A stretch of 64,000 bases of DNA from Candidatus Azobacteroides sp. (GTDB lineage Bacteria; Bacteroidota; Bacteroidia; Bacteroidales; WRGA01), in assembly GCA_021201815.1 (NCBI GenBank), contig JAJQEC010000093.1, positions 15,989 through 79,988 on the forward strand, read 5' to 3'. The stretch's first letter is position 1. The number at the start of each line of letters is the position of its first letter. Under the pieces are notes generated by a model. That model was not told the origin of the DNA. It did not search any database and worked only from the letters and a program-made list of their open reading frames with translations. A program made the position numbers and the translations under genes. Shown one piece after another: positions 23,160 through 47,311 of this stretch.

Positions 23160-24178
23160 ATGAAACTATCTGTTGTTATTATAAATTACAATGTAAAATT
23201 TTACTTTCTGTTTTCGAATCGAAAGTAAATTCTGAGATGGAAGTATTTGTTGTAGATAATAATTCGACAGATGGCTCTCAGGAATATATTACTTCCAGGT
23301 TTCCGTCGGTTATTTATCTCCTGAATAAAGACAATCCGGGATTTGCAACAGCCGCTAATCAGGGAATCCGGAAGTGTCAGGGAGAATATATTCTTTTGCT
23401 GAATCCCGATACCGTTTTAGGAGAAAATGTGCTTGAGAATGTGTGTACTTTTATGGATGCACATCCGGAAGCCGGTGGGGCAGGAGTGAAGATGATTAAT
23501 GGATATGGTGAGTTTCTGCCGGAATCCAAAAGGGGGTTTCCTTCTCCCTGGTCTTTCTTCTGGGAATTTACCGGTATAGCCCGGTTATTTCCTTATTTCG
23601 GAATTTTTAGTACGTATTACCTACGCTACCTGAATGCCAATAAGATTCATGAGGTAAATGCTTTGTCGGGAGCTTTTATGATGATAAGGAGATCAGTGCT
23701 GGATAAAACCGGTTATCTGGATGAATCTTTTTTTATGTACGGAGAAGCGCTGGATCTTTCTTGCCGGATTACCAAGGCCGGGTTTAAGAATTATTACCTT
23801 CCTGAACGGATTATTCATTATAAAGGACAAAGTACCGGACTGATAGGGCTGGAAAATGAAAAAATCCTTTCTGAATCTATGAATCTCTTTTTTGAGAAAT
23901 ATAATCCGTCTCAAAAAAAGCTTTTTTCTTATTTCATGTCGGTAGCCATTCGTTTCCGGAAAATTGCTACAGCAGTTAAAAGAATCACCAATATCCGGAA
24001 TCGCAAAGAAATTGACGATACGACGTTGATGGAGTACGGAATGTTTACTTACGAAGAGATGATCCAGCAGATGGACGAATCGGAATTTACCGCTCAATAC
24101 CTGATTTACTCTCCCCGCTCGGGTATGATCGTCGGTTCCCGGAGTGTAGAGAAATGCAGAGAACCTGATGGTAAATAA
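23160..24178 (+). pseudogene. Family-2 glycosyltransferase with disrupted 5' end (track ORF 23237..24178 lacks the conserved N-terminus)
   Basis: ATG at 23160 encodes MKLSVVIINYNVK, the canonical GT2 start, then hits a stop after FYFLFSNRK. The main ORF frame upstream of 23237 reads ...KILLSVFESKVNSEMEVFVVDNNSTDGS. The two parts are in different frames (23160 vs 23237). Confidence 0.65.
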
Positions 24179-24186
24179 CCTGAAGG

Positions 24187-24453
24187 CCGTGGGCTGAGGC
24201 TTCACGGCTAATGATATGGCGCCACTCCGTGGCTTGTTGGGAAGATAGCTATACACATAATAATATATTTCCACATTATCTTATTATCACATTGGCACAT
24301 TAGAAAATCTCCTTTTATAAAATCTATTTCCATAAGGGAAACAGTTGCACAAAATGCTCGAATTAGAAGGAAGACAACCTTAAAAATTAATGGCATTGCC
24401 CTCAAAGCCGCATAGCGGTGATATATTATTAGCCGTGCTGCCTCAGCCCACGG
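24187..24453. mobile_element. MITE-like element copy 2 (267 bp), inverted relative to copy 1, with extra internal sequence
   Basis: Tips CCGTGGGCTGAGGC / GCCTCAGCCCACGG. Its left arm matches the reverse complement of the copy-1 right arm and vice versa. Internal tatttccacattatcttatt...cacattggcacatt matches the reverse complement of the copy-1 interior. Confidence 0.7.
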
Positions 24454-24455
24454 TT

Positions 24456-25004
24456 CTATTTGTAATATTTCTCTAAAAGATATTTGAAATTAACATTAAA
24501 AGAAATCATAATATAATTAGAGCCCTCCAAATCATTATTTCTCAATTCAAAGGTTAGGTTTTTAAGCTTTGCTTCAAATAAAGATATTTCCTGAGGAGTT
24601 ATCATTGTTGTCTCTGAAAGGAAAAAAGTAACTTCTTTAATTTCCCCTTTATCAGACATATAAGCAAGAAGTAAAACGGTTTCTTTCCCACTTAATTCTT
24701 CGGCTCTTTTTTTTGACCATACTTTTGTTGCAAGAATTGAAACTTGCCTATTATAGTGGAATGGCATAGCTAAGGCAATAGCATCTCCTTTTTCTTCTTT
24801 TAATTTTTCAGAAGGCTTGTATTCTTCCAAGTAAAGTTTATTTTTTTTATTTCTTATCTCTAACCAATTTGACCCTTCGGATTTGTTTATCTCATACTTC
24901 GATGTATTTTTCCATTGTTCTTCAAGTATTCTTGTCCCATTTTGCGGATAAATAACAAAACAATGAAGAAAAAGTATAAGACAAAAAATGACTGTTTTTT
25001 TCAT
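24456..25004 (-). CDS. Exported ~180-aa protein, paralog family member 1 (immunity-like / TonB_C-like fold suspected)
   Basis: 182-aa ORF with signal peptide MKKTVIFCLILFLHCFVIYPQ. The 3' 396 bp is identical to 27080..27475. Stop TAG abuts the MITE-like element. Confidence 0.75.
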   Translation of the reverse strand: MKKTVIFCLILFLHCFVIYPQNGTRILEEQWKNTSKYEINKSEGSNWLEIRNKKNKLYLEEYKPSEKLKEEKGDAIALAMPFHYNRQVSILATKVWSKKRAEELSGKETVLLLAYMSDKGEIKEVTFFLSETTMITPQEISLFEAKLKNLTFELRNNDLEGSNYIMISFNVNFKYLLEKYYK

Positions 25005-25093
25005 TATAATTTATTATTTATTCATGGTAAATAGTCAGGAGGTTAAAAAACAGCGTCAGCCTTTCTTAGCTACCACGCTGTTTTTTAGTTAAA

Positions 25094-25624
25094 TTATTGA
25101 ATTAGTTTAGAAAAAGAAATCCGGTATAAAAGAGGGGTATATCCAGCCCCTTCCAAATTGTTATACTGCAATTCTATATTTGCGTTTTTTAATTTTTTTT
25201 CTAGTAAAGTTATTTCTTTAAGAGTGATTTTCGTTTCCTGATTTAGGAAAAATATCATTTCTTCAAATTTTCCGGTTTCGGATATATAAATAATAACGCT
25301 CAAATTTTCTCCTTTTAATTCATTTATACGTTCTATGCTCCAAACTTCTTTAGCAAAATTATTTAAATTAAAGAATCGTGGAAGAGCACCGGACACTAAG
25401 GTATTATAATATTCTTTTTCTGTCGGAGATAAATTAGATTTTTGTAAATGAAGATGATTAGTCTTATTATATAATTGAAACTGATTATATCTTAAATTCT
25501 CTGGTATAGAAATTTCATATTCACTATCTTCACTGTTGTACCATTGTTTATATTTATCATATTTTTCCTAAGATGTTGCTGGAATAAAATTAAGTAAAAG
25601 GAATAAAATAATATTTTTTTTCAT
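25094..25624 (-). pseudogene. Paralog family member 2, interrupted by an in-frame TAG at 25570..25568
   Basis: ATG at 25624..25622. Hand translation MKKNIILFLLLNFIPATS*EKYDKYKQWYNSEDSEYE... continues in the same frame into track ORF 25094..25396. Paralogs have Q or K at the stop position (SQKDFGKYGQW, AKKIFGKYDQW). Confidence 0.75.
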
Positions 25625-25653
25625 ATGTTATTTATATAATATTTTTTTGTAAA

Positions 25654-26035
25654 TTACTTGAAATTTATTATGCCATTTGGCTTTAAATTATAATCAATAG
25701 GGAAATTGTAAGTAGGACTTGTCTTTATAAAAATTTTAGTAATATCCTTGTGGGTATCTTTTCCATCCATATCTGGATATCTTTCTTCCTTATCCTTTTT
25801 TATGATCTCATTACTCAGATCGTCTTACTCCCTATCGTTCCCATTTTAGGATTTGATTCATACTATTCCTCTGCGGATTCTGATCCGTCTCCTACCATCA
25901 TTCCTTAACCTTCTGATTCTTAGTAATTTTAATCTTCTTTATAGTTGGATTATTTATGCGCATAGCCTGTTCGATACCAAAAAAAGGTATTAAAATAAAT
26001 AGATTCTGATTACTTTATTTTTTTATAGAACCCAT
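25654..26035 (-). pseudogene. Heavily decayed, internally deleted copy of the 302-aa gene (28233..29141)
   Basis: 5' end atgggttctataaaaaaataaagtaatcagaatctatttatttta parallels atggaaaag...aaaaataaagtaaccagaatctgtttacttttaata. The 3' end translates ...TSPTYNFPIDYNLKPNGIINFK*, matching ...ERPEYNYPIDYTLRPEALLKLLNK*. Multiple stops and frame changes in between. Confidence 0.65.
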
Positions 26036-26154
26036 GGGAAAGATATTAGCAATTTATATTTATTATATTAAACCTATTAAATATAATAAAGGCTACCTTA
26101 TTTTCAGTAGTCTTTAAAAACTAAAAACACAGGTTTTTATTGTTTTTCAGATAA

Positions 26155-26688
26155 CTATTCTTTTAATAGGAAAGCAAAATTAACAGGGAAAGGTATCAAA
26201 ATATAATTTGAGCCTTTTAGCTCTGTAGTTCTTAATTCTACTTGTGTATTTATGATTTTATTTTCGAATAAAGAAATTTCATCTGGTGTAATAGAAGTAT
26301 CAATAGGTAAATAGAAAATTATTTCTTCAAATTTCCCATTATCCAGCATATAAACATATGTCAGTATACTCTCTTTTCCATTAAGCTCATATGCCCGTTG
26401 CTTTGACCAAACTTCTTTTACGATATCCCGTAAATTGTAATTTTCCGGAAGTGCTTTTGAGATAGTAATCTGAGGGTTTTCTTCTAACTTTTTAGAAGGC
26501 TTGTATTCTTCTAAATAAAGTTTATTTGATTTATTTGTTACTGTGAAACGTTTCAAATCCGGTTTTTCATTAAGGATATATTGAGTCGTGTCAGAGCTTA
26601 CCCATTGACCATATTTACCGAAATCCTTTTGGCTGAATAATGATAATTGACTAAGAATTAGAAAAAGAACAACTATTTTTTTTCTCAT
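26155..26688 (-). CDS. Exported ~180-aa protein, paralog family member 3
   Basis: 177-aa ORF with signal peptide MRKKIVVLFLILSQLSLFSQ and shared motifs YLEEYKPSKKLEE...GSNYILIPFPVNF. Stop TAG. Confidence 0.75.
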   Translation of the reverse strand: MRKKIVVLFLILSQLSLFSQKDFGKYGQWVSSDTTQYILNEKPDLKRFTVTNKSNKLYLEEYKPSKKLEENPQITISKALPENYNLRDIVKEVWSKQRAYELNGKESILTYVYMLDNGKFEEIIFYLPIDTSITPDEISLFENKIINTQVELRTTELKGSNYILIPFPVNFAFLLKE

Positions 26689-26695
26689 AACATAT

Positions 26696-27012
26696 TTATT
26701 TAAAATTTAAAATTGCATCTGGCCTTAAATCATAATCTATCGGATAATCATATGCTGGATTATTTTTTGTAAACATTTCCAAAAAATAATAATATTCTTC
26801 CTTCATAGATTCCCATGTAGGATATTCATTTGATCCATTTGTAATATCTTCTAACCAATTAAAATACCTTTCATTATCGGATAAGTTTCCGGATATAGCC
26901 CAACAACAAGGGTAATCATTTAAAGCAGTATTGATAATATCATAAAATAACTTAGCTTCAAATTCAATATTAGAATGTCCTTTACCATCATATTTATCAT
27001 TATAATAAGCCT
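26696..27012 (-). pseudogene. Start-less remnant encoding only the C-terminal ~105 aa of a 302-aa-gene homolog
   Basis: Hand translation YYNDKYDGKGHSNIEFEAKLFYDIINTALNDYPCCWAISGNLSDNERYFNWLEDITNGSNEYPTWESMKEEYYYFLEMFTKNNPAYDYPIDYDLRPDAILNFK* aligns with the C-terminus of 28233..29141. No start codon; the frame closes at 27056..27058. Confidence 0.7.
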
Positions 27013-27023
27013 TAAAATATGAT

Positions 27024-27049
27024 AGAGGCTGCCTTTTCTGACAGCCTCT
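27024..27049 (-). terminator. Hairpin after 27074 gene (8-bp perfect stem agaggctg / cagcctct)
   Basis: Read directly; followed on the minus strand by atcatatttt. Confidence 0.4.
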
Positions 27050-27073
27050 GGTTAGTTATCCAATAAAAAAGAA

Positions 27074-27623
27074 TTACTCGTAATATTTCTCTAAAAGATA
27101 TTTGAAATTAACATTAAAAGAAATCATAATATAATTAGAGCCCTCCAAATCATTATTTCTCAATTCAAAGGTTAGGTTTTTAAGCTTTGCTTCAAATAAA
27201 GATATTTCCTGAGGAGTTATCATTGTTGTCTCTGAAAGGAAAAAAGTAACTTCTTTAATTTCCCCTTTATCAGACATATAAGCAAGAAGTAAAACGGTTT
27301 CTTTCCCACTTAATTCTTCGGCTCTTTTTTTTGACCATACTTTTGTTGCAAGAATTGAAACTTGCCTATTATAGTGGAATGGCATAGCTAAGGCAATAGC
27401 ATCTCCTTTTTCTTCTTTTAATTTTTCAGAAGGCTTGTATTCTTCCAAGTAAAGTTTATTTTTTTTATTTCTTATATCGAATCGATTTGATCTATCGCGT
27501 TTACTTATCTCATATTCAGAGGCCTTTTTCCATTGTTCTTCAAATATTCTTGTCCCATTTTCCGGATAGCTAGCGGAAGAATAAAGAAGAAGCATAAGAC
27601 AAAAAAAATGATTTCCTTTTCAT
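27074..27623 (-). pseudogene. Paralog family member 4; the signal-peptide-encoding 5' end is out of frame because of an 8-nt homopolymer (27601..27608)
   Basis: ATG at 27623..27621 gives MKRKSFFLSYASSLFFR* as written. With 7 instead of 8 T (minus strand) it reads MKRKSFFCLMLLLYSSASYPENGTRIFEEQW..., joining track ORF 27074..27595. Confidence 0.7.
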
Positions 27624-27687
27624 TGGTTTTTATGTTATTTCCGGCTCTTATCTTTACCCTCAATTAAGAACCGGAAATACAAATAAA

Positions 27688-28227
27688 TTAATAATTCTCT
27701 GCCAATCTGGTGAAATTTACATAAAAAGGTAACAAAATATAATTAGAGCCCTTCAGATCATCCGTCCTTAACTGAAACTTCTTTTCTTTTAATTTCTGCT
27801 CAAATAAGAAAATTTCCTGTGGTGTGATAGTCGTAGTTTCAAACAATAAAAATGTTATTTCTTTAATTTCTCCTTCATCAGAAATATATACACGAAGAAT
27901 GATCGTTTCCTTTCCTCTCATTTCTTTGGCACGTTCCTTTGACCAAATTTCTTCGGCCATAATCGGAATATCCTTTGTATAATAAGGTGGCATAGCAGCT
28001 TGTATTAGATATTCATTATTTTTTAACTTTTCCGAAGGTTTGTATTTTTCCAAATAAAGTACATTTTCTTTATTCCTTATTTCTAAACGATGTATATCTT
28101 CTAATAAAACTACATTATATTTCAATGTATCCGAAGGTATCCATTGATCATATTTTCCAAAAATCTTTTTTGCAAAGAGAGAGGTCGCACTACATAATAA
28201 AAAATATAATAAAAGAGTTTTTTTCAT
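27688..28227 (-). CDS. Exported ~180-aa protein, paralog family member 5 (directly downstream of the intact 302-aa gene)
   Basis: 179-aa ORF with signal peptide MKKTLLLYFLLCSATSLFA. Start lies 5 nt after the stop of 28233..29141. Confidence 0.8.
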   Translation of the reverse strand: MKKTLLLYFLLCSATSLFAKKIFGKYDQWIPSDTLKYNVVLLEDIHRLEIRNKENVLYLEKYKPSEKLKNNEYLIQAAMPPYYTKDIPIMAEEIWSKERAKEMRGKETIILRVYISDEGEIKEITFLLFETTTITPQEIFLFEQKLKEKKFQLRTDDLKGSNYILLPFYVNFTRLAENY

Positions 28228-37946: not shown

Positions 37947-38774
37947 TTAATCCTTTCCTTTCTGTAATCCGTACGTTTTATCTCTGAGAAATTGTGTATA
38001 TTCTTTCAGGTCTTTATACTTTGCCTGTTCTTCTACACTGATTATTTCTCCGAAAGTTATTTTGAACGTCCTGCCTTTCTTATTGAATACTTCATGGCAG
38101 AGACGAAGGGTTCTTAGTTTCCAGCTTACCAGACCAATGAGATTATAAAAAGTAGAATTATATCCGTGAAAGAAAACAGGAATAACCGGTACTTTTGCTT
38201 TCCGGATAAGCCGCATAACCGATGGCTGCCACTCTCTGTCTACAATCTCAAGGCGATTATTATACTTAGATACAGCGCCTGCCGGAAAGAATCCGAGCGG
38301 ATGCCCTTCTTTCAGGTGGGCAATACATTGTTTCACTCCTCCTACACTGGAATGTTTATCTTTTGCTCCGTCATACGGATTGACGCCTATGAAATTAGGC
38401 GCCATCGTTTTAATCATATTCAGCATCCAGTTTACCATCATTTTATAATCCGGGCGTTTGCGGGCAATGATGTCAATTGCCATAATTCCATCCAATGCTC
38501 CATATACATGATTGGATACTGTAATGAACGCTCCTTCGGGAAGATTGTTTAGTATTTCCTCGTTTTCGATGGAATAGGTTACTTCCACATCCTTAAGTAA
38601 ACGTCGGGTAAATTCTACTCCCTCATGTTCTATAGAACGCTTATATACCCAGTTTACTTTGTTTAATCCGGTAAATTTCATAAGAAAATCAGCTAATTTT
38701 ATTCCGATCTTCTTGCTGAATACAGGATGTATTTTTTTTAAGTCTTCAATGTCTATTACGGCGGGTTTTCTCAT
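37947..38774 (-). CDS. Lysophospholipid (PlsC-like) acyltransferase
   Basis: 275-aa ORF with the H(X)4D motif NHVYGALDG and FPAGAVS downstream. Confidence 0.7.
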   Translation of the reverse strand: MRKPAVIDIEDLKKIHPVFSKKIGIKLADFLMKFTGLNKVNWVYKRSIEHEGVEFTRRLLKDVEVTYSIENEEILNNLPEGAFITVSNHVYGALDGIMAIDIIARKRPDYKMMVNWMLNMIKTMAPNFIGVNPYDGAKDKHSSVGGVKQCIAHLKEGHPLGFFPAGAVSKYNNRLEIVDREWQPSVMRLIRKAKVPVIPVFFHGYNSTFYNLIGLVSWKLRTLRLCHEVFNKKGRTFKITFGEIISVEEQAKYKDLKEYTQFLRDKTYGLQKGKD

Positions 38775-38847
38775 TTTTGCTGTAAATGAAAAAGGTTGCC
38801 CAAGAATTTATCTTGTAACAACCCTTATTCGTTAGACGTTATTTCAT

Positions 38848-40146
38848 TTAGTCAATAAAATCAACTGTTTCTTCTCCTATAATCTGGCGAAGTGTATTTT
38901 TCAGTTTTATATACTGGATAAACAGGTCATGTTCTGCTACTGTTTCGTAATCTGTCATCGGACTCTTGAAATAGAAAGACAGCCAGGTCTGAATACCGGA
39001 GAATCCACAGCGTTGTGCCAGGTCGGTAAATAATACAAGGTCAAGACACAATGGTGCTGCTAAAATAGAATCACGGCAAAGGAAATCGACTTTCAATTGC
39101 ATAGGATAGCCCATCCAGCCGAATATATCGATGTTATCCCATCCTTCTTTATTGTCTTTTCTGGGTGGATAATAATTAATCCTTACTTTGTGATATACGT
39201 TTCCGTACAGTTCAGGATATAAATCCGGTTGAAGAATGTTATCGATTACAGAAAGTTTACTTTCTTCTTTCGTTTTAAAAGAACCCGGATCGTCCAGTAC
39301 TTCTCCGTCACGGTTCCCCAGAATGTTGGTAGAGAACCATCCGTTCAGACCTAACATACGTGTTTTGATCATTGGAGAAAGGACTGTTTTCAACATTGTT
39401 TGCCCGGTTTTGAAATCTTTCCCGCAGATCGGAACGTTTTTCTGTTCGCACAACTGCCAGATTGCCGGCATATCAACAGTGAGGTTCGGTGCACCGTTTA
39501 TATAAGGAACACCTTCGGAAATAGCTGCATACGCATAAATCATGGAGGGTGCGATCTGGTCGCTGTTGTCTTTCATTGCCTGTTCCAGTTTTGCCAGGTC
39601 TTTATGTTCTTCTCCTAAAGGTAGGAATACTTCTGTACTTCCACACCATATTACAACCAGACGGTCACAATTATTTTGAGATTTGAAATTACGAATATCT
39701 TCTTTTACCTGTTCCGCGAGATCCCATTTTGTTTTTCCTTCTTTTACCCAGGTACCGTGCAGACGTTTTACGAAATTCTGGTCAAAAACGGCTTTCATCG
39801 GTTTTATCTGCACCAATTCGCCTTTTACTCCGTCAATATCTTTTGTTTCCAGTACTTCTGCATGTTTTGCCGCATCATATACATTATCTTCGAAGATATC
39901 CCATCCACCGAAAACGATGTCGTTAAGATCAGCTAACGGCACTACGTCTTTAATTTTAGGAAAACGGTTCTCATTCCTTTTTCCCAGACGCATGGTTGCC
40001 AATTGGGTGATAGATCCGATTGGTTTAGAAAGTCCTTTACGTACAGCTAAAGTTCCTACAATAAAAGTTGAAGCAACCGCTCCCCCAACACCTACAACCA
40101 AAACACCAAGTTTACCCCCGGCGTCTTTGACTTGAATTTTTTCCAT
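38848..40146 (-). CDS. myo-Inositol-1-phosphate (inositol-3-phosphate) synthase
   Basis: 432-aa ORF with the N-terminal NAD-binding GVLVVGVGGAVAST and overall MIPS-like sequence (…NGWFSTNILGNRDGEVL…SKLSVIDNIL…). Confidence 0.8.
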   Translation of the reverse strand: MEKIQVKDAGGKLGVLVVGVGGAVASTFIVGTLAVRKGLSKPIGSITQLATMRLGKRNENRFPKIKDVVPLADLNDIVFGGWDIFEDNVYDAAKHAEVLETKDIDGVKGELVQIKPMKAVFDQNFVKRLHGTWVKEGKTKWDLAEQVKEDIRNFKSQNNCDRLVVIWCGSTEVFLPLGEEHKDLAKLEQAMKDNSDQIAPSMIYAYAAISEGVPYINGAPNLTVDMPAIWQLCEQKNVPICGKDFKTGQTMLKTVLSPMIKTRMLGLNGWFSTNILGNRDGEVLDDPGSFKTKEESKLSVIDNILQPDLYPELYGNVYHKVRINYYPPRKDNKEGWDNIDIFGWMGYPMQLKVDFLCRDSILAAPLCLDLVLFTDLAQRCGFSGIQTWLSFYFKSPMTDYETVAEHDLFIQYIKLKNTLRQIIGEETVDFID

Positions 40147-40316
40147 GTTAGTTCTTTTTAAAAATATAAAAGATAGTTAATTTCCAATTATTATTAATTA
40201 GTTTACCCGGATACTTAAAAATATAATTTTTTAAGAACCATGCAAATGTCGTTATTTTTCAATAAAGTTGTTTTTCTTTTCTCTAAAAAATGAGAAATAG
40301 TTTGTAAAAACTCCCC

Positions 40317-40757
40317 TCAGCAATCGTTATGAATATAAAAAAGATTCTGCAGGATGTCTGCAAATTCTTCTTTTTGAGTTTCTGTAAGTGGTTTCTTTTC
40401 CAGCTTTACCGGGATTTGATTTTTTCCATCCGGGTTTATCCGGACTCCTTCCAGCATTGCCGGCTTTTGGTGAAGAAGCATCACTCCGGTAAATAAATAT
40501 TCTACCATGCAATACCGATTTTCTTCTTCATTAAAAGAAATGTTAAGTTCGATCCAATCTTCTTCATGGTCGTATTTATACATTCCGATTGTATAAGGAT
40601 TTCCACCGCAGGGATCTTCTATTGCCAGATACATTGTGATATTATATTTTCCGTTTATGGAACCTTTATATAACATTTGTTCCGGCTTAGATATCTGTGA
40701 GAAAACAGGAGATAGAAAGCATAACAGAAAAAGAGAAAAGAAAAGATACTTTTTCAT
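40317..40757 (-). CDS. Small exported protein of unknown function inside the inositol-lipid cluster
   Basis: 146-aa ORF with signal peptide MKKYLFFSLFLLCFLSPVFSQ. Stop TGA. Confidence 0.6.
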   Translation of the reverse strand: MKKYLFFSLFLLCFLSPVFSQISKPEQMLYKGSINGKYNITMYLAIEDPCGGNPYTIGMYKYDHEEDWIELNISFNEEENRYCMVEYLFTGVMLLHQKPAMLEGVRINPDGKNQIPVKLEKKPLTETQKEEFADILQNLFYIHNDC

Positions 40758-40771
40758 ATTCAGCTACTTAC

Positions 40772-41485
40772 TTATAATATTTCCTTTAAGTCCGTAAAGG
40801 TATAAATTATTCCGGAAGCAACGGGATTTTCCGTATTTTCTTTCTCATCCCAGCCAATTCCTTTTAACCAGATGGTTTTACATCCTGCAGAGGTTGCAGG
40901 TAAAATATCCTTTGTATAAGAATCTCCTACCACTACTACATTTTCAGCAGGTAAATTCAGTTCGTTTACTCCTAATGTGAAAATAGCCGGATCGGGCTTA
41001 CGGACATTTACGATGGCAGATTCAACAATGCTTTTGAAATATTCTCTGATACCGAAATCCTCCAAGACTGTTTCTACATTTCCGTAAAAATTAGAAACCA
41101 ACACCATGGGGTATTTTTCGTATAAATAGTTAAGTACAGGGATGGCGTTCGCAATGCTTTCTTTTACAAATCCATAACAAATCTCACTGATGGGCTGAGA
41201 ATAATTTTGTGCTTCAGAAGACAAAAAGAAGTTTTCTTTAAGATAATTGATTTGCAGGCTTGTTTTTTTTAATAGGAGTTCATAGAAATTATCTTTCTCT
41301 TCAATTACTTTATGAGTAGCTAAATACCGTTCTCCATATACATAGGCTTCCCTGAAAGCTTCTCTGCTTACCGGGACATTCACTTGCTGATAAGCATCCC
41401 ACAATACCTCGGCCCAATGTTTGCCATTTGTATCAATCGTAGCCCCATAATCAAATAAAATTCCTTTTATATTTTCTAATTTCAT
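40772..41485 (-). CDS. HAD-superfamily hydrolase (candidate inositol-phosphate / PIP phosphatase)
   Basis: 237-aa ORF with N-terminal ILFDYGATIDTNG and C-terminal VVVVGDSYTKDI HAD motifs. Confidence 0.7.
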   Translation of the reverse strand: MKLENIKGILFDYGATIDTNGKHWAEVLWDAYQQVNVPVSREAFREAYVYGERYLATHKVIEEKDNFYELLLKKTSLQINYLKENFFLSSEAQNYSQPISEICYGFVKESIANAIPVLNYLYEKYPMVLVSNFYGNVETVLEDFGIREYFKSIVESAIVNVRKPDPAIFTLGVNELNLPAENVVVVGDSYTKDILPATSAGCKTIWLKGIGWDEKENTENPVASGIIYTFTDLKEIL

Positions 41486-41516
41486 GCGTAATATATAATA
41501 TATTCCCAGATGCTTT

Positions 41517-42593
41517 TCAACATCTGTTTTCTTCGTTTTTATTGTAATTGGGTTGTTCTATTTCTTTCTGGATTATTTTCTCTTCCTGAATCATCTTATG
41601 ATAGGAGTGATTTTTTGCGGGATGAATTTTAATCAAAACCAGTCCGATAAGTATCCATGCCAATTCCCTGACCCGGGTGATTAAGCTTACGGAAACCCCC
41701 AGTCCCAGCGGAAGAGAAAAGCTGGTAAGCGCTAACGCAAATCCGGCTTCCCGAGTTCCCAACTGCATAGGAGAGAAAAAGAATATATTTGCAAAAAGAG
41801 AAGAGATACCAATAATGATGATACTATCAATAAATGTAACCTCCTGTCCCAAGGCAGTAAGAATAAAAAAAACTTCCAGTGCGCTGAGAATTCTGGCAAA
41901 AAAATCAAACACCAGTGCTTTATAAAAAGCTACCGGGCGATTGTTATGTAATTCGGCTATTTGTTCATCTACCCGCTGTAAATTATTTTTTTGTTTTAAG
42001 ACAAATTTCCTTGCCCATTTCTTGACAACCGGTACTTTTTGTAAGCTTTGTAAAATATTCAGAATAAGGCCTTTTTTATATCCCCTGAATAGTAAAAATA
42101 TCAACGTTACACATACAACGAAAACGACAATAAGAGAGGTGGTCAATCCTTTCTGGGTGGGAATAAAAATAAGTACAAGCGGGATTGTCATTAACCAGTA
42201 AAAAAAATGGGAGAGGAAATGCATCATGGCATAAGCAATTACCGAAGAAGTTGCTTTGGCTGTCCCAAGGTTTTCCCGGATTTCCATGATCTTGTAGGGC
42301 TCTCCGCCTACCAGGCCTCCGGGCGCAACATAATTCAGTGCGTATCCGCTTATTGTTAATTTCATTACCCGCAGGAATGAAATCTTAGTCTCCTTTTTAT
42401 CTTTTATAATCGTATACCAGGAAAGGGCATTGAAAAAATAAATGGGAATCCAGATGCCGATAATAGCAAAAAACCACCATCCTGTCTTTGCAATATTGCT
42501 GGCAATTACGTCTATACCTATCTTATAAATCATAAAACTAAAGATAAGTAAACCTGCAATAAGAAGAATATTACGTAGTCTTTTAGCCTTCAA
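41517..42593 (-). CDS. UPF0104 / lysylphosphatidylglycerol-synthase-TM-region (flippase-like) membrane protein
   Basis: 358-aa polytopic ORF with character typical of the TIGR00374-type family. Stop TGA. Confidence 0.55.
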   Translation of the reverse strand: MKAKRLRNILLIAGLLIFSFMIYKIGIDVIASNIAKTGWWFFAIIGIWIPIYFFNALSWYTIIKDKKETKISFLRVMKLTISGYALNYVAPGGLVGGEPYKIMEIRENLGTAKATSSVIAYAMMHFLSHFFYWLMTIPLVLIFIPTQKGLTTSLIVVFVVCVTLIFLLFRGYKKGLILNILQSLQKVPVVKKWARKFVLKQKNNLQRVDEQIAELHNNRPVAFYKALVFDFFARILSALEVFFILTALGQEVTFIDSIIIIGISSLFANIFFFSPMQLGTREAGFALALTSFSLPLGLGVSVSLITRVRELAWILIGLVLIKIHPAKNHSYHKMIQEEKIIQKEIEQPNYNKNEENRC

Positions 42594-43548
42594 TTTTCTC
42601 TATTTTTTTAGTAAAACCCTTGCAAAAACCTTCATGGGTGCGTACCATGTAAATGAGCATTATATTCAGGACTGTAAGCTCAAATGCAAAATATATCCAT
42701 ACCTGATTAAGAAATAATCCTACAAATAAAGCAATTACTCTGGTATTAAAAGAAAGCATATTGGTATATTTCATCAGAGGTTTACTCTTTGCGCGAAATT
42801 CTGTTTTAAACCATTCCGGAACATTTTCTTCGTATTTCGCCTGTAGTACTTGTAGCATTTTTTGTAATGCCGGAGTTGATTTCTCCTGGGTGATGGTATA
42901 ATTTCTATAGAAAAATAAAACGATTTTATTCCAGAAATCTTTATTCCAGGAGAGCGTATTGTATTTCTCTGTCAGTTTCGTTGAGTTGTCTACTTCGCTT
43001 CCTGATTTACCTTTCAGGAACAGAAGATGAATGTTCCTATAATAATCTGCCATGGCAGCCTGTTTGGAGTGGAAGAATCCGGCGGTTAATGCTAAAGGCC
43101 ACACAATATACCAATCAAAACCGGCATTCTGTAAACGCAGGCATAAAGCAATATAGATAGAAAAAAACCAAAGATCACCACATACTCCATCCAGAATCCG
43201 TCCGAAATTTGAACTCTGTCCGGTCATTCTGGCAAGTTGCCCGTCTGCACTATCATAGGAATTTGCCCAGATAAGCAATAACATTCCGTATATATTAATG
43301 AGCAGATTATCATAATAGAACAGGATTCCTGCTGCAACGCCGATAAATATGCTTGCAATAGTTACTATATTCGGCGTAATTCCAAGCTTTCGGAAGAGGA
43401 GTGCCCAGCAATATCCGATCGGTCGATAAAACCAGATATCAATAAATTCTTCGGTATCTGCAGATTTGAGTGTATCTTTAAAAGAAATCTTTTTATTTTC
43501 CATTCTTGAATGTAGGTTTCCCTTTTTAGAAAAGGGTTTTTGTTTCAA
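42583..43548 (-). CDS. CDP-alcohol phosphatidyltransferase family protein (candidate phosphatidylinositol(-phosphate) synthase)
   Basis: Contains DSADGQLARMTGQSSNFGRILDGVCGD, close to the D(x)2DG(x)2AR...G(x)3D motif. The start may instead be MENKKISF at 43503, which would remove the 23-nt overlap with the upstream gene. Confidence 0.75.
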   Translation of the reverse strand: MKQKPFSKKGNLHSRMENKKISFKDTLKSADTEEFIDIWFYRPIGYCWALLFRKLGITPNIVTIASIFIGVAAGILFYYDNLLINIYGMLLLIWANSYDSADGQLARMTGQSSNFGRILDGVCGDLWFFSIYIALCLRLQNAGFDWYIVWPLALTAGFFHSKQAAMADYYRNIHLLFLKGKSGSEVDNSTKLTEKYNTLSWNKDFWNKIVLFFYRNYTITQEKSTPALQKMLQVLQAKYEENVPEWFKTEFRAKSKPLMKYTNMLSFNTRVIALFVGLFLNQVWIYFAFELTVLNIMLIYMVRTHEGFCKGFTKKIEKIEG

Positions 43549-44413
43549 CAGATGCTTTTTTCAGGCATTCATTATAAATACAAGTTGCAATATGTGGAGA
43601 AGCAAGTGTGCGGCAGGGAGCAAAACTGGGCCAGTCATTAAAATCAATGATCTGAATATTTCCTTCTGTATCTACAATACAGTCGCCACCATATATTTTT
43701 ATGTTTAACGTTTCGGCTGTTTTTTTACATATTTCTTTTAAATACTTGATGGAAAAAGAAAAATGTTGTGCGTCCCCGTTCTGTTGTTCATTGCCGAATT
43801 TGCTATGATTCCGGTCTCCAGGATAAAACCAATAGAAGAAGTCAGAATCATGAACACCATAAAATTTCAGCAAATCTCCCGTTAAATGCTTGTTTACCAC
43901 TGCTCTTTCGATTCCTCTGAGATGAAACTCATTAATAATATTACAGGCTACTTCCAGACTTCGTGCGTAACTCACGTCTTCCCGGTGGATTGCATGGCAG
44001 TCCGCTCTTTTTATCCAGTATTTTCCTGCGTTTAAAGTTAGGAGAAGTTCTGTGGCGTCTTTATCTGTATCTACTATCACACTTTGAGGGTGCGGAATGT
44101 GGTTCCCGACTATTAAGTTAGTCATTTTCTCACGCATACAGTTTGTTATACCATATCCGGAGTTAATAACGACATGTCCTTTATCTTCTAATTCCTTCAG
44201 CTTATTTATTGTTGTAAAGTCACGGGCCATATTGAAAATAAACTTCTCGGAAATCACATTTCCGATAAATTCTTCTTCCGTATATTCGTTTACTATACAA
44301 CCCAAAGCACGGAGTTCTTTTGTCGTTTCATTAAAAATTGCAGCATCATTTCCGATGTGATTCGGGGAAAATATACTGCCTCTTCGAACTCCTGCAATGA
44401 TCATTTTTCTCAT
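43526..44413 (-). CDS. ATP-grasp-like protein (resembles the inositol-polyphosphate kinase type of ATP-grasp)
   Basis: 295-aa ORF. The C-terminal YGGDCIVDTEGNIQIIDFNDWPSF resembles the metal/ATP-binding end of ATP-grasp enzymes. Confidence 0.45.
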   Translation of the reverse strand: MRKMIIAGVRRGSIFSPNHIGNDAAIFNETTKELRALGCIVNEYTEEEFIGNVISEKFIFNMARDFTTINKLKELEDKGHVVINSGYGITNCMREKMTNLIVGNHIPHPQSVIVDTDKDATELLLTLNAGKYWIKRADCHAIHREDVSYARSLEVACNIINEFHLRGIERAVVNKHLTGDLLKFYGVHDSDFFYWFYPGDRNHSKFGNEQQNGDAQHFSFSIKYLKEICKKTAETLNIKIYGGDCIVDTEGNIQIIDFNDWPSFAPCRTLASPHIATCIYNECLKKASVETKTLF

Positions 44414-44425
44414 TTATTTCTTTTA

Positions 44426-45121
44426 TTATTCTGTCCGGATAAATTTTTCCGCCTTATTTATATCTTCCACATGGTCCACATCGACTATTTTATCAAAAGG
44501 ATATGCTTTCAGCAAAACCCCGGCTTCTACCATAGCCTGTTGAAAATTCCGCATTCTGGATATCCCTTTTTCTACTGCTTCCTGAAGCAACGGAAGAACG
44601 TTGGGTGAGAGGCAGTATATCCCTCCTGATACGAATTTACTGTTTGGCTCTGAAGAAAAACCTGTAATAGTCATTTCTTCATTTGTTTTTACATACAATG
44701 GCTTTTCATCATCAATATAATCAGTCACTGCCATTAACCCGTCTATCTCATTATTTCTTGAAAATTCACTGATATAGCCGGAAAATTCCTTTTCATGAAA
44801 AATCGTATCTACTGTGGTTAAGCAAAACTTTTCTTCTTTTAAATAAGGCATTAACTCATAAAAGCTATGCATGGAACTTTCCGTGGATTTGACAATAACA
44901 TTCAAGGGAACCGGTAATTGTAAAGATTGCAGATGTATCTGCACTTCCTTCATGTATTCGTTTACAATAATAGCGATAGAAGACGCTTTATTCCGAACAA
45001 ATATATTTATTAAACGGTCGATCATGGATATGCCATTTAAATGCACCAATGGCTTGGGAACACTTATCCCTTCCTCCACTAAACGGGATCCCTCTCCTGC
45101 TGCTATAATAGCATACTTCAT
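44426..45121 (-). CDS. Nucleotidyltransferase (NTP-transferase domain; candidate inositol-phosphate cytidylyltransferase)
   Basis: 231-aa ORF with N-terminal IIAAGEGSRL...PKPLV signature. Confidence 0.7.
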   Translation of the reverse strand: MKYAIIAAGEGSRLVEEGISVPKPLVHLNGISMIDRLINIFVRNKASSIAIIVNEYMKEVQIHLQSLQLPVPLNVIVKSTESSMHSFYELMPYLKEEKFCLTTVDTIFHEKEFSGYISEFSRNNEIDGLMAVTDYIDDEKPLYVKTNEEMTITGFSSEPNSKFVSGGIYCLSPNVLPLLQEAVEKGISRMRNFQQAMVEAGVLLKAYPFDKIVDVDHVEDINKAEKFIRTE

Positions 45122-46492: not shown

Positions 46493-47311
46493 TTATCTGT
46501 ACCCTTCGGAAATTTCTTCCTGTAAGATTACTTTTATTTTTTCATCTTTTGATAATTTTTTTCTGATGTAAGGCGTGAATATATTTTTTTTTGTATGCCA
46601 TAAAAGTATGTCTGCCTCAGGAAAATATTCTTTTATAAAAGGATATGTCGTATAACCGGATGATAAATAGTTCACTTTGCTTCTTAAAAGAAGGGAATCT
46701 ATCTCCTTTGCATAGTTTAAAATTTCCTCTTCCGTGAGCTTGTAAAGATTAAAATACGGTAAATAAAAACTCGTATTAAATCCGAAATCGGTAAAAGCTT
46801 CTAAAAGTTCAGGTTGAGTGGATTCTATGATAATCCGGGATGGATGAATTCCGTTTTCAGTTATAATAGAAACTAGGCAATCATAAATCTTTGTATAGTT
46901 ATTTTTATTCAGGTTTTTTATATCCAGCCAGAAATAATGCGCATCCTTATTTGTCACGTATTGGAAAAAAGTTTGTAACGGGAGAGCAGGTATTTCCTGG
47001 ATAGCATGTGAAACATATAAAAGGTTTCTTTCCGGATCATAATTAATATCTGTTTCCAGCCCTTTGTATTTGCTCTCCATGATAGAAAGCCTTTCTAAGG
47101 TATTTACCCTGTGAAGCCAGTATTTATCTTCATAAAATGCTGTAGAAGCATACGTAGTACCTTTCGTTTCCAGTTTAGGAAATGACCGGATAATTAATAA
47201 TTCTTCTTTCCAGGAAATTTTAAAAAAAACAAATAGGATAGCTAGGATAAAAAGGAAAAAGAAGAATGTCAGTACGGCCTTTTTCATTGGGGTAAGAAAA
47301 GACTGTCTCAA
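46493..47311 (-). CDS. Membrane-anchored GDPD/PLD-like (sphingomyelinase-D-like) protein, tentative
   Basis: 272-aa ORF with an N-terminal TM. WLHRVNTLERL...GLETDINYD resembles the H-x-V-N ... G-x-E-x-D core of the GDPD-like PLD family. Confidence 0.35.
   Translation of the reverse strand: MRQSFLTPMKKAVLTFFFFLFILAILFVFFKISWKEELLIIRSFPKLETKGTTYASTAFYEDKYWLHRVNTLERLSIMESKYKGLETDINYDPERNLLYVSHAIQEIPALPLQTFFQYVTNKDAHYFWLDIKNLNKNNYTKIYDCLVSIITENGIHPSRIIIESTQPELLEAFTDFGFNTSFYLPYFNLYKLTEEEILNYAKEIDSLLLRSKVNYLSSGYTTYPFIKEYFPEADILLWHTKKNIFTPYIRKKLSKDEKIKVILQEEISEGYR

Follow-up and report, generated by a model that had tools for sequence, protein, structure and literature searches.

The ATP-grasp gene of the locus described here is a strictly conserved member of the inositol-lipid pathway, and an overlooked one in a cluster type that is already in print. 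The locus lies within a 64,000-nt stretch of a Candidatus Azobacteroides sp. contig (the window), where the ORF listing places eight co-directional genes on the minus strand at 37947–45121, exactly the limits given in a preliminary description of this DNA. Because the family matches fit the cluster reported by Heaver et al. 2022 (PMC9246714), we identify the locus as a further example of the "alternative" inositol-lipid cluster of the Bacteroides vulgatus/Prevotella type (NTP-transferase, CDP-alcohol transferase, HAD, and MIPS). We place middling confidence in the reading that the eight genes form an operon whose products build inositol phospholipids and sphingolipids through a Kennedy-type (CDP-head-group) route. 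The preliminary description had proposed an inositol-lipid cluster with a possible CDP-inositol-type route; both are supported by our profile results and agree with the proposal of Heaver et al. for the B. vulgatus-type cluster, but the cluster type and the putative route, predicted for Bacteroidales in 2022, are published, and novelty is confined to the ATP-grasp gene.

In order of transcription, all on the minus strand, the genes encode an NTP-transferase (a nucleotidyltransferase of 231 aa, 44426–45121; Pfam NTP_transferase and NTP_transf_3), putatively a CTP:inositol-phosphate cytidylyltransferase; an ATP-grasp protein (295 aa, 43526–44413), a candidate inositol kinase; a CDP-alcohol phosphotransferase (321 aa, 42583–43548; Pfam CDP-OH_P_transf), putatively a phospho-inositol transferase to a lipid alcohol; a flippase-like membrane protein (LPG_synthase_TM/UPF0104, 358 aa, 41517–42593); a HAD-IA phosphatase (237 aa, 40772–41485; Pfam Hydrolase and HAD_2); a small protein with a signal-like hydrophobic N-terminus (146 aa, 40317–40757); myo-inositol-1-phosphate synthase (MIPS; 432 aa, 38848–40146); and a GlsA/OlsF-N-like O-acyltransferase (275 aa, 37947–38774). 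Intergenic gaps run from −23 to +73 nt, except for 170 nt before MIPS, and Pfam and NCBIfam confirm the family assignments of all genes but the ATP-grasp and small-protein genes. The same succession of NTP-transferase, ATP-grasp, CDP-alcohol transferase, and HAD genes, in most cases with MIPS too, recurs in 80 genome loci (seeded on the ATP-grasp protein) and 80 metagenome loci (seeded on the CDP-alcohol transferase), and the arrangement is therefore not chance.

The published B. (Phocaeicola) vulgatus/Prevotella cluster, from the same phylum, likewise combines an NTP-transferase, a CDP-alcohol phosphatidyltransferase, a HAD hydrolase, and MIPS, and has a gene for a lysyl-PG-synthase-like membrane protein in its neighborhood (PMC9246714); the window locus differs in its additional GlsA-like acyltransferase and in coming from an uncultured lineage. 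MIPS itself (Pfam NAD_binding_5, 374 bits; Inos-1-P_synth, 112 bits) adjoins the module in 54 of the 80 genome loci and in 38 of the 53 metagenome loci with enough flank. The acyltransferase (Pfam Acyltransf_2, 96 bits; NCBIfam GlsA, 140.7 bits against a cut-off of 260, and OlsF, 136.9 bits) reads as a putative paralogue of lyso-aminolipid O-acyltransferases, with homologues inside 15/80 genome clusters and about 12/80 metagenome clusters. The small protein matched nothing in Pfam or NCBIfam and had no homologue in the 160 related loci; it is probably a passenger whose membership of the system is doubtful.

The preliminary description would have been refuted had the ATP-grasp and NTP-transferase genes not been conserved with the core; in both sets of loci they clearly are. 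The ATP-grasp gene, present in all 80 genome loci seeded on it, lies between the NTP-transferase and CDP-alcohol transferase genes and is accompanied by the CDP-alcohol transferase in 78, the HAD in 74, and the NTP-transferase in 71 plus fusions. It holds the same position in 61 of 64 metagenome loci seeded on the CDP-alcohol transferase; of the three remaining loci, just one truly lacks the gene. The HAD gene is found in 66 of 72 metagenome loci. Even an ATP-grasp homologue at about 33% identity has the same gene context. NTP-transferase::ATP-grasp fusions occur in at least seven separate 50% clusters, a triple NTP-transferase::ATP-grasp::CDP-alcohol transferase fusion on two contigs from two samples, and fusions of the HAD to the C-terminus of the CDP-alcohol transferase at four loci (L048, L070, L088, and L090). 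We found no discussion of this ATP-grasp gene in the searchable literature: Heaver et al. 2022 name three genes only (BVU_RS13095, 13105, and 13115), and neither "ATP-grasp" nor "BVU_RS13100" occurs in their text (PMC9246714). The skipped tag BVU_RS13100 would be the ATP-grasp gene of the B. vulgatus cluster.

The ATP-grasp protein, which gene callers start at Met 44404 (giving 292 aa), belongs to a large family (about 4900 clusters at 90% identity; 1212 representatives at 50%), and the nearest species representative shares no more than 61% identity with it. A Pfam search returned no family, but the AF2 model (pLDDT 90.2) predicts a clear ATP-grasp fold, with Foldseek TM scores of about 0.7 to Ddl, RimK, and ArgX. 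The motif IIDFNDWPSF, with which the protein had been said to end, is present at 43622–43651 (minus strand) but occupies residues 255–264 of 295. Across 110 diverse homologues, N259, D260, and P262 never vary, and I256, D257, W261, S263, and F264 hardly do; D257 and N259 are predicted Mg2+ ligands. Aligned opposite this motif are IDINAFPGY from human ITPK1, VDVNVFPSY from Entamoeba ITPK1, and VDLNYLPSF from Arabidopsis ITPK4, and the ITPK1 family (eukaryotes and Lokiarchaeota) has the same ATP-grasp fold and D...D-x-N Mg2+ ligands, as well as the x-N-x-[FWL]-P-[GS]-[YF] motif. The resemblance to inositol kinases noted earlier does extend to three ITPKs matched by the family profile in the PDB (E 2.5e-4 to 2.4e-3) and to an hhalign match with ITPK1 (91.7%, E 7.8e-7, 238 columns), but it is weak: the family is about as close to the ligase RimK (84.1%, E 7.5e-6), the Pfam ITPK model PF05770 matched 0 of 55 members, the best PDB sequence match is the ester-forming ligase PsnB (1.4e-6), and the Foldseek top 50 consists of ligases throughout, with no ITPK among them. 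For this protein, neither sequence nor fold tells a kinase apart from a ligase. We know of no bacterial ITPK.

Of the two enzymes flanking it, the CDP-alcohol transferase points to a soluble CDP-head-group donor. The CDP-alcohol transferase (Pfam CDP-OH_P_transf, 43.8 bits against a cut-off of 22; motif DSADGQLAR-x8-G-x3-D-x4-D, the final Asp being preceded by one additional residue) matches A. fulgidus AF2299 DIPPS (2.9e-8) and CEPT1/CHPT1 (1e-5 to 2e-4) ahead of PIP synthases (0.009 to 0.19). By these profiles it is closest to DIPPS and the choline/ethanolamine phosphotransferases rather than to PIP synthases, and we favor a soluble donor because DIPPS and CEPT1/CHPT1 take soluble CDP-alcohols, whereas PIP synthases take CDP-diacylglycerol. 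The NTP-transferase family profile matches the T. maritima inositol-1-phosphate cytidylyltransferase (IPCT) 4JD0 over almost its full length (E 2.7e-6), as well as A. fulgidus IPCT 2XME and LicC. Its invariant R13, K23, and D105 align with an Arg, Lys, and Asp of 4JD0 that we take to be the R16, K26, and D112 named as critical (PMC12275187). Residues of this type are general to the NTP-transferase fold.

Three characterized systems bear comparison. The IPCT/DIPPS system of hyperthermophiles (A. fulgidus AF2299; T. maritima 4JD0) is similarly built from a cytidylyltransferase and a CDP-alcohol transferase, in some cases fused; among solved structures AF2299 is the one closest to the window transferase, and IPCT-type residues are kept in the window NTP-transferase. 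It differs in that the acceptor is inositol phosphate and the product a soluble osmolyte rather than a lipid, and scores against the NCBIfam equivalog NF041135 (39.7 and 26.9 bits) fall far below its cut-off of 580. The MIPS-IPCT-BEPIS operon of Rhodothermus marinus (Jorge, Borges and Santos 2015) is the one bacterial system in which transfer of the head group from CDP-inositol to a lipid alcohol has been demonstrated by experiment; as described in PMC4587543, it comprises three genes, has no ATP-grasp or HAD partner, and uses dialkylether glycerol as acceptor. B. thetaiotaomicron BT_1522–BT_1526 encodes MIPS, a PIP synthase, a PgpA-type PIP phosphatase, and an AUR1-like PI-DHC synthase; it shares with the window its phylum, end products (PI-DHC), MIPS, and flippase-like neighbor, but proceeds from CDP-diacylglycerol and inositol phosphate through a PIP intermediate. 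The preliminary description was mistaken in taking MIPS, CDP-alcohol transferase, and HAD for the core of this pathway: its phosphatase (BT_1525) is annotated as PgpA-type, BT_1523 belongs to another transferase subfamily (the window transferase scores 27.9 bits against NCBIfam NF052561, cut-off 350), and Pfam finds no PgpA-type or PAP2/AUR1-type domain among the window's eight genes. The HAD belongs to the alternative cluster.

In the pathway we propose, MIPS, whose family assignment is solid, would convert glucose-6-phosphate to inositol-3-phosphate; the ATP-grasp protein would transfer phosphate from ATP to myo-inositol, or perhaps to an inositol monophosphate, admitting free or exogenous inositol; the NTP-transferase, judged by homology, context, and the IPCT precedent, would form CDP-inositol from CTP and inositol phosphate; and the CDP-alcohol phosphotransferase would pass phospho-inositol from CDP-inositol to dihydroceramide and/or diacylglycerol, releasing CMP. 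The HAD would provide a conserved accessory step, and may strip an extra phosphate from an intermediate or hydrolyze the CMP or PPi by-product; this differs from Heaver et al., who proposed the HAD as the PI-DHC synthase (PMC9246714). More speculatively, transport of the lipid across the inner membrane might fall to the flippase-like protein, and a third, ester-linked acyl chain might be attached by the GlsA-like acyltransferase.

Some genomes that lack MIPS carry the four-gene module by itself, with both the ATP-grasp gene and the HAD retained. Parabacteroides distasonis and P. chinchillae carry the module and no MIPS homologue. So does Tannerella forsythia, which lacks MIPS and IMPase, makes inositol-phospho-dihydroceramides only from exogenous myo-inositol, and has until now lacked an inositol kinase candidate (PMC4587543); its CDP-alcohol transferase has been termed a BEPIS homologue. 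B. thetaiotaomicron, whose BT_1522–1526 cluster has no ATP-grasp gene, barely uses exogenous inositol.

On the best reading, the ATP-grasp protein would be an inositol kinase supplying the cytidylyltransferase. We favor a kinase because the pathway substrates lack the carboxylate that an ATP-grasp ligase requires, and because of the ITPK profile matches, the module-bearing genomes without MIPS, and the poor use of exogenous inositol by B. thetaiotaomicron; to our knowledge, inositol phosphate kinases are the only ATP-grasp enzymes that phosphorylate hydroxyl groups. The same order of kinase, nucleotidyltransferase, and transferase underlies the Kennedy-type pathways (choline/ethanolamine kinase, cytidylyltransferase, and phosphotransferase in eukaryotes; bacterial LicA-LicC-LicD; the Bacteroides fucokinase/GDP-fucose pyrophosphorylase FKP), where kinase::nucleotidyltransferase fusions also occur, although the kinase folds are different and none acts on inositol. 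Several points weigh against this reading. The ligase-like matches described above speak against kinase chemistry; we know of no ITPK that phosphorylates free inositol, and known myo-inositol kinases have the ribokinase fold. A salvage kinase looks redundant in MIPS-bearing clusters, and the NTP-transferase is at least as close to generic sugar-1-phosphate nucleotidyltransferases, which score equally well or better against its profile, as it is to IPCTs. Finally, a phosphatase would not be required by a plain kinase–cytidylyltransferase–transferase route, although the HAD gene is conserved to the same degree as its partners.

This last point is accommodated by an unlikely alternative, in which the ATP-grasp protein makes an inositol bisphosphate (from the monophosphate, or from free inositol in two rounds), the NTP-transferase yields CDP-inositol-phosphate, the transferase forms a phospho-inositol-phosphate lipid, and the HAD removes the extra phosphate, like PIP/DIPP phosphatases. 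All four conserved genes would then have consecutive roles, and both fusion types and the retention of the HAD without MIPS would be explained; the transferase's nearest solved relative is DIPPS, whose product needs a phosphatase, and ITPK1 is a multi-site kinase that takes MIPS-derived Ins3P (PMC8024741). Set against this, the extra phosphate has no evident chemical purpose, the head group being an activated donor already, the single kinase of T. forsythia would need to phosphorylate twice, and the HAD's nearest families are soluble small-molecule phosphatases (NCBIfam REG-2-like, CTE7, and YjjG-type pyrimidine nucleotidase; PDB matches including N-acylneuraminate-9-phosphatase). We know of no organism with a CDP-inositol-phosphate intermediate.

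It is less probable still that the ATP-grasp protein is a carboxylate-activating ligase that modifies the inositol head group or the lipid, for example with an aminoacyl ester. PsnB and the all-ligase structural neighbors favor such chemistry, as does the flippase-like protein (PF03706, 109 bits; NCBIfam HpnL-like and flippase-like domain), an MprF-type domain that elsewhere handles aminoacylated lipids; a homologue (BT_1521) is noted near both inositol-lipid cluster types (PMC9246714). Few clusters, however, have the flippase-like gene in its window position, with the CDP-alcohol transferase on one side and the HAD on the other (2/80 genome and about 14/80 metagenome loci); repeated fusion to a soluble cytidylyltransferase points to an early soluble step; and T. 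forsythia has the gene, yet its characterized inositol lipids are plain phospho-myo-inositol dihydroceramides whose head group bears no extra substituent (PMC4587543).

We consider it quite improbable that the ATP-grasp protein is a dihydroceramide kinase, with the NTP-transferase making CDP-dihydroceramide, the transferase coupling this to MIPS-derived Ins3P, and the HAD dephosphorylating the product. This would mirror the mycobacterial CDP-diacylglycerol/PIP pathway, place the four conserved genes and MIPS in consecutive steps, and explain both fusion types, but the ATP-grasp protein and NTP-transferase have soluble, sugar-phosphate-type folds, known ceramide kinases are DAGK-like (PMC12275187), the transferase is nearer to enzymes using soluble CDP-alcohol donors than to CDP-diacylglycerol users, and the scheme fails in MIPS-less T. 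forsythia, still leaving it without an inositol kinase. Least probable of all is that the ATP-grasp gene is a mere neighbor with no role in inositol-lipid synthesis: housekeeping pdxA adjoins the cluster in 51/80 loci, a warning that conserved adjacency alone can mislead, but the ATP-grasp gene lies within the module, where reading frames overlap or nearly abut, stays with it in unrelated contexts (P. distasonis L029, T. forsythia L057), and is translationally fused to pathway enzymes in several lineages.

Of the candidates for the missing enzyme that would let bacteria such as T. forsythia use free inositol, the ATP-grasp protein, as a putative inositol kinase, is the strongest.

The locus comprises eight co-directional minus-strand ORFs at 37947-45121, and our ORF listing reproduces exactly the coordinates assigned to them in the preliminary description. 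In order of transcription, they encode a nucleotidyltransferase (NTP-transferase; 45121..44426), a 295-aa ATP-grasp protein without a Pfam family (44413..43526), a CDP-alcohol phosphotransferase (hereafter CDP-alcohol transferase; 43548..42583), an LPG_synthase_TM/UPF0104 membrane protein (42593..41517), a HAD-IA hydrolase (41485..40772), a 146-aa protein that has a signal-like N-terminus and matches no family (40757..40317), myo-inositol-1-phosphate synthase (MIPS; 40146..38848), and an Acyltransf_2 acyltransferase (38774..37947). Adjacent ORFs overlap or lie 12-73 nt apart, with the sole exception of 170 nt ahead of MIPS, and mnmA lies upstream of the NTP-transferase gene, 276 nt away. A promoter and terminator scan gave fewer promoter-like sites than the shuffled expectation and no terminator-like sites at gene boundaries, and an Rfam scan of the window gave no match. 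The contig is present in two sequencing runs, and for the ATP-grasp protein the nearest species representative reaches no more than 61% identity.

The characterized inositol-lipid cluster of B. thetaiotaomicron, BT_1522-1526, encodes MIPS, a PIP synthase, a PgpA-type PIP phosphatase, and an AUR1-like PI-DHC synthase (Heaver et al. 2022, PMC9246714). For B. vulgatus and most Prevotella, the same authors reported a "putative alternative" cluster, in which MIPS has an NTP-transferase, a CDP-alcohol phosphatidyltransferase, and a HAD hydrolase as neighbors, and for which a CDP-inositol route was proposed by analogy to the Kennedy pathway (PMC9246714); our literature search on CDP-inositol from 2022 onward gave nothing more about this cluster. 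All four of its genes are present and co-directional in the window (by Pfam and NCBIfam matches, with BVU_RS13095, 13105, and 13115 matched by description), and the same gene order recurs in 160 related loci, including those of Parabacteroides, Tannerella, Muribaculaceae, and Prevotellaceae. We can thus assign the locus to the alternative type with high confidence; it is a further example, in an uncultured Bacteroidales lineage, of a cluster kind that is known but so far predicted in silico. The HAD gene, which the preliminary description had counted in the characterized B. thetaiotaomicron core, belongs instead to the alternative cluster. In contrast to BT_1522-1526, the window transferase is not of the BT_1523 type (NCBIfam NF052561, 27.9 bits against a cut-off of 350), and none of the eight window proteins has a PgpA or PAP2 domain in Pfam. 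The locus also differs from the bifunctional IPCT/DIPPS equivalog NF041135 (at least 580 bits), against which the NTP-transferase scores 39.7 and the CDP-alcohol transferase 26.9 bits. The chemistry has an experimental precedent: Megson et al. (2015) credit Jorge et al. (2015) with demonstrating that MIPS, IPCT, and BEPIS (the CDP-alcohol transferase) of Rhodothermus marinus put phospho-inositol from CDP-inositol onto a lipid alcohol (PMC4587543).

Profile comparisons of the CDP-alcohol transferase bear on the nature of its donor. Against the PDB, its profile matches the A. fulgidus DIPPS domain best (2.9e-8), followed by eukaryotic choline/ethanolamine phosphotransferases (1e-5 to 2e-4), with PIP synthases behind (0.009 to 0.19), a ranking that fits a soluble CDP-alcohol as the putative donor. 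Together with the family matches, it supports the CDP-inositol-type route proposed in the preliminary description, an idea that was already published. The protein passes PF01066 (43.8 bits, cut-off 22), and its signature reads D99-SA-D102-G-QL-A-R107-x8-G116-RIL-D120-GVCG-D125, with a final spacing of x4 as against x3 in the canonical D-x2-D-G-x2-A-R-x8-G-x3-D-x3-D. The extra residue, G124, occupies the position of the fourth Asp in AF2299, and both G124 and D125 are invariant in 25/25 aligned homologues. The NTP-transferase aligns across almost its full length with the T. maritima inositol-1-phosphate cytidylyltransferase (4JD0), and its invariant R13, K23, and D105 stand opposite an Arg, a Lys, and an Asp that we take, from the chain-numbering offset, to be the catalytic R16, K26, and D112 of that enzyme (PMC12275187). 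Residues of this kind are common to many sugar-1-phosphate nucleotidyltransferases and are not proof of inositol-phosphate specificity; overall, the protein is as near to generic members of that group as to IPCTs, and not nearer to the latter.

The ATP-grasp gene goes unmentioned in the literature that we searched. Neither "ATP-grasp", "RimK", nor "BVU_RS13100" occurs in Heaver et al., whose named tags (BVU_RS13095, 13105, and 13115) skip one between the NTP-transferase and the phosphatidyltransferase (PMC9246714); we infer that the skipped B. vulgatus tag is the ATP-grasp gene. To assess its conservation in both directions, we collected loci seeded on the ATP-grasp protein and, separately, on the CDP-alcohol transferase. 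Among 80 species genomes seeded on the ATP-grasp protein, the CDP-alcohol transferase is present in 78/80, the HAD in 74/80, the NTP-transferase in 71/80 (plus fusions), and MIPS in 54/80, in a constant order of NTP-transferase, ATP-grasp, CDP-alcohol transferase, and HAD; even around an ATP-grasp homologue at about 33% identity, the context is identical. Conversely, of 80 metagenome loci seeded on the CDP-alcohol transferase, 64 have 1 kb or more of sequence upstream, and 61 of these include the ATP-grasp gene, the three exceptions being one fusion scored as NTP-transferase, one contig that is too short, and one true absence (L111). The conservation of the ATP-grasp and NTP-transferase genes with the pathway core, on which the preliminary description had staked its reading, is thus borne out. 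Fusions join the same genes: NTP-transferase::ATP-grasp in at least seven separate 50% clusters plus several loci, CDP-alcohol transferase::HAD among related loci (noted in P. veroralis by Heaver et al., PMC9246714), and an 818-aa triple fusion of NTP-transferase, ATP-grasp, and CDP-alcohol transferase (P0263) on two contigs, each from a different sample (L083 2061-4517 and L084 883-3339). Taken together, the two-way conservation and the fusions indicate a conserved core of four genes, not three, and we have little doubt that the ATP-grasp protein takes part in the pathway.

We note in passing several other associations of these genes. A 691-aa protein on a single contig (P0241, locus L167 1268-3343) joins a PAS-HisKA-HATPase_c sensor histidine kinase to an ATP-grasp family domain, with HAD, MIPS, DUF5686, and NTP-transferase genes downstream; it could be a regulatory fusion or an artefact of gene calling or assembly. 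Unbiased clustering of neighbors gave pdxA and rlmN as the only other recurrent ones. The persistence of pdxA is unusual: in 51/80 genome loci (e.g., L002 8161-9255) it immediately precedes the NTP-transferase gene on the same strand, and it also adjoins an NTP-transferase gene in a distant locus (L165 8135-9238) where the ATP-grasp gene is 1.3 kb off. In the window, pdxA is missing and mnmA holds the upstream place. The pdxA adjacency is probably housekeeping synteny, and we read that of rlmN in the same way.

The ATP-grasp family is large (about 4900 clusters at 90% identity and 1212 representatives at 50%) and annotated as hypothetical only. A single-sequence PDB search with the window protein gave no match, and a Pfam scan of 55 family members gave scattered weak ATP-grasp matches and no ITPK model. 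With these 55 homologues as input, AlphaFold2 returned a model with a mean pLDDT of 90.2, and Foldseek with this model gave 711 PDB matches at E<=1e-3, with a TM of about 0.7 to RimK, Ddl, and ArgX; the predicted fold is clearly that of the ATP-grasp superfamily. Among 110 diverse homologues, K135, D244, and N259 never vary and K183 and D257 hardly ever do, and these five residues are the putative ATP-phosphate and Mg2+ ligands expected of such a fold. The motif IIDFNDWPSF, which the preliminary description had likened to inositol-polyphosphate kinases, is present at 43622-43651, and the sequence link that it hints at is real: a broad family profile matches Entamoeba ITPK1 (2.5e-4), Arabidopsis ITPK4 (4.3e-4), and human ITPK1 (2.4e-3), carried mainly by a C-terminal D-x-N-x-aromatic-P-[GS]-aromatic motif. 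However, the link is not specific to kinases. The ester-forming ligase PsnB outscores the ITPKs with the same profile (1.4e-6), the Foldseek top 50 in the PDB are ligases only and do not separate kinase from ligase, and PF05770 (Ins134_P3_kin) matches neither the window protein nor any of the 55 homologues even at E<=10. In hhalign profile-profile comparison, ITPK1 (91.7%, E 7.8e-7) and RimK (84.1%, E 7.5e-6) are nearly equidistant, and we therefore dropped the claim of ITPK membership. The family is its own branch of the ATP-grasp superfamily, outside the ITPK family, and its chemistry has to be read from context.

ATP-grasp enzymes either activate carboxylates or, as ITPK1 and PPIP5K do among the inositol phosphate kinases, phosphorylate hydroxyls, and a carboxylate is absent from every intermediate of the proposed pathway. 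HldE and FKP are precedents for a kinase fused to the nucleotidyltransferase that takes up its product. The most informative context comes from genomes without MIPS. T. forsythia ATCC 43037 carries the four-gene module (L057 9176-12491), and MIPS is absent within 10 kb of it; Megson et al. (2015) reported that this organism lacks MIPS and inositol monophosphatase homologues, and its inositol-phospho-dihydroceramides, about 25% of membrane lipids, are made solely from exogenous myo-inositol (PMC4587543). Those authors found "no obvious ... candidates for an inositol kinase" and thought IPCT absent (PMC4587543), although the CDP-alcohol transferase gene, presumably their BEPIS homologue, has an NTP-transferase gene two genes upstream. 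P. distasonis and P. chinchillae, both without a MIPS homologue in Supplementary Table 5 of Heaver et al. (PMC9246714), likewise carry the module, and in P. distasonis (L029 9286-12538) the four genes stand alone between unrelated opposite-strand genes. No conserved inositol transporter was found beside MIPS-less modules: P. distasonis has none nearby, and an Asp-Al_Ex permease lies upstream in Tannerella only. In contrast, B. thetaiotaomicron, whose BT_1522-1526 cluster is without an ATP-grasp gene, incorporates almost no exogenous inositol.

To start from free inositol, a CDP-inositol route requires a kinase, and the module has no unassigned ATP user other than the ATP-grasp protein, which is thus the best candidate for the missing inositol-activating enzyme. 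The pathway would then be of Kennedy type, with the ATP-grasp kinase followed by the cytidylyltransferase and the phosphotransferase, and with MIPS as an optional de novo source of inositol phosphate. On balance, we lean slightly toward the protein phosphorylating inositol or an inositol phosphate; that it acts on free inositol specifically is somewhat less likely than not. That it founds a bacterial inositol kinase family, distantly akin to ITPKs, which completes a three-step Kennedy-type pathway for inositol sphingolipids, is likewise a reading with somewhat less than even odds.

The plain three-step route does not account for the HAD hydrolase, as it has no need of a phosphatase. The HAD gene is nonetheless conserved like the other module genes, kept in MIPS-less genomes, and at times fused to the membrane transferase. 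Possibly, the ATP-grasp protein makes an inositol bisphosphate, CDP-inositol-phosphate is then formed, and the HAD strips the extra phosphate after transfer to the lipid, a scheme that gives consecutive roles to all four genes. It is also possible that the HAD hydrolyzes the CMP or PPi by-product; YjjG-type pyrimidine nucleotidases and the pyrophosphatase PpaX are among its nearest families in NCBIfam. Less likely are a CDP-ceramide variant and a role of the ATP-grasp protein as a head-group ligase, given that the folds are soluble and of sugar-phosphate type, that the transferase is DIPPS/CEPT-like, and that T. forsythia lipids have a plain phospho-inositol head group (PMC4587543). Action of the HAD on inositol phosphates upstream of the kinase is unlikely because the gene is retained where MIPS is missing; an IMPase-like activity on Ins3P, by which the position of the phosphate would be reset, was down-weighted on the same ground and for the fusion to the membrane transferase.

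Around the four-gene core, other genes of the locus are optional: the flippase-like gene is present in 2/80 genome and about 14/80 metagenome loci, and the acyltransferase gene in 15/80 and about 12/80, respectively. The LPG_synthase_TM protein is a flippase-like domain, and a homologue lies near both cluster types (PMC9246714). The acyltransferase is nearest to GlsA (140.7 bits, cut-off 260) and OlsF-N (OlsF 136.9 bits, cut-off 620) and, from these scores, appears to be a cluster-associated paralogue of the GlsA/OlsF-N lyso-aminolipid O-acyltransferases, not an equivalog. GlsA/OlsF-N enzymes act on amide-linked 3-hydroxy fatty acids, whose 3-hydroxyl they esterify. As the T. forsythia inositol-phospho-dihydroceramides bear a second fatty acid ester-linked on the amide-linked hydroxy acid (PMC4587543), we speculate that the acyltransferase may add a third acyl chain to the inositol lipid; no acyltransferase gene of this type lies within 10 kb of the T. 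forsythia module. The 146-aa protein (40317-40757, minus strand) and a 272-aa protein two genes upstream of the cluster (46493-47311, minus strand), each with a hydrophobic N-terminal stretch, have no significant family match and no homologue in the 160 related loci. A CarboxypepD_reg/DUF5686 protein, the BT_1527-type neighbor noted by Heaver et al. (PMC9246714), adjoins the module in some lineages (L057 4802-7366, L168 9845-12400, L167 5323-7728) and is absent near the window cluster.

Two other regions of the window stand out by composition. At 5901-14246 (minus strand), GC is 0.46-0.55 as against about 0.37 elsewhere, and ORFs of 1866 aa (7224-12824) and 440 aa (5901-7223), both without a Pfam match, adjoin a 297-aa protein that bears a T9SS C-terminal sorting domain; the patch may encode a foreign or compositionally unusual secreted giant protein. 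The region 24001-28000 has low GC (0.29-0.31) and few long ORFs.

In abundant Bacteroidales of the gut and mouth, inositol sphingolipids count among the major membrane lipids, and those of B. thetaiotaomicron influence its fitness in the host (PMC9246714). The alternative pathway, so far predicted in silico, is widespread ecologically; its users include Prevotella, P. vulgatus, Parabacteroides, Muribaculaceae, and Tannerella, and the published model covers three of its four strictly co-conserved genes. The cluster type and the CDP-inositol logic are already in the literature; what goes beyond it is that the ATP-grasp gene belongs to the core and is at times fused to its partners. Counting it in changes the working model and supplies a concrete candidate for the inositol-activating step. 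If true, the kinase assignment would explain how MIPS-less host-associated Bacteroidales such as T. forsythia and P. distasonis make inositol lipids wholly from scavenged inositol.
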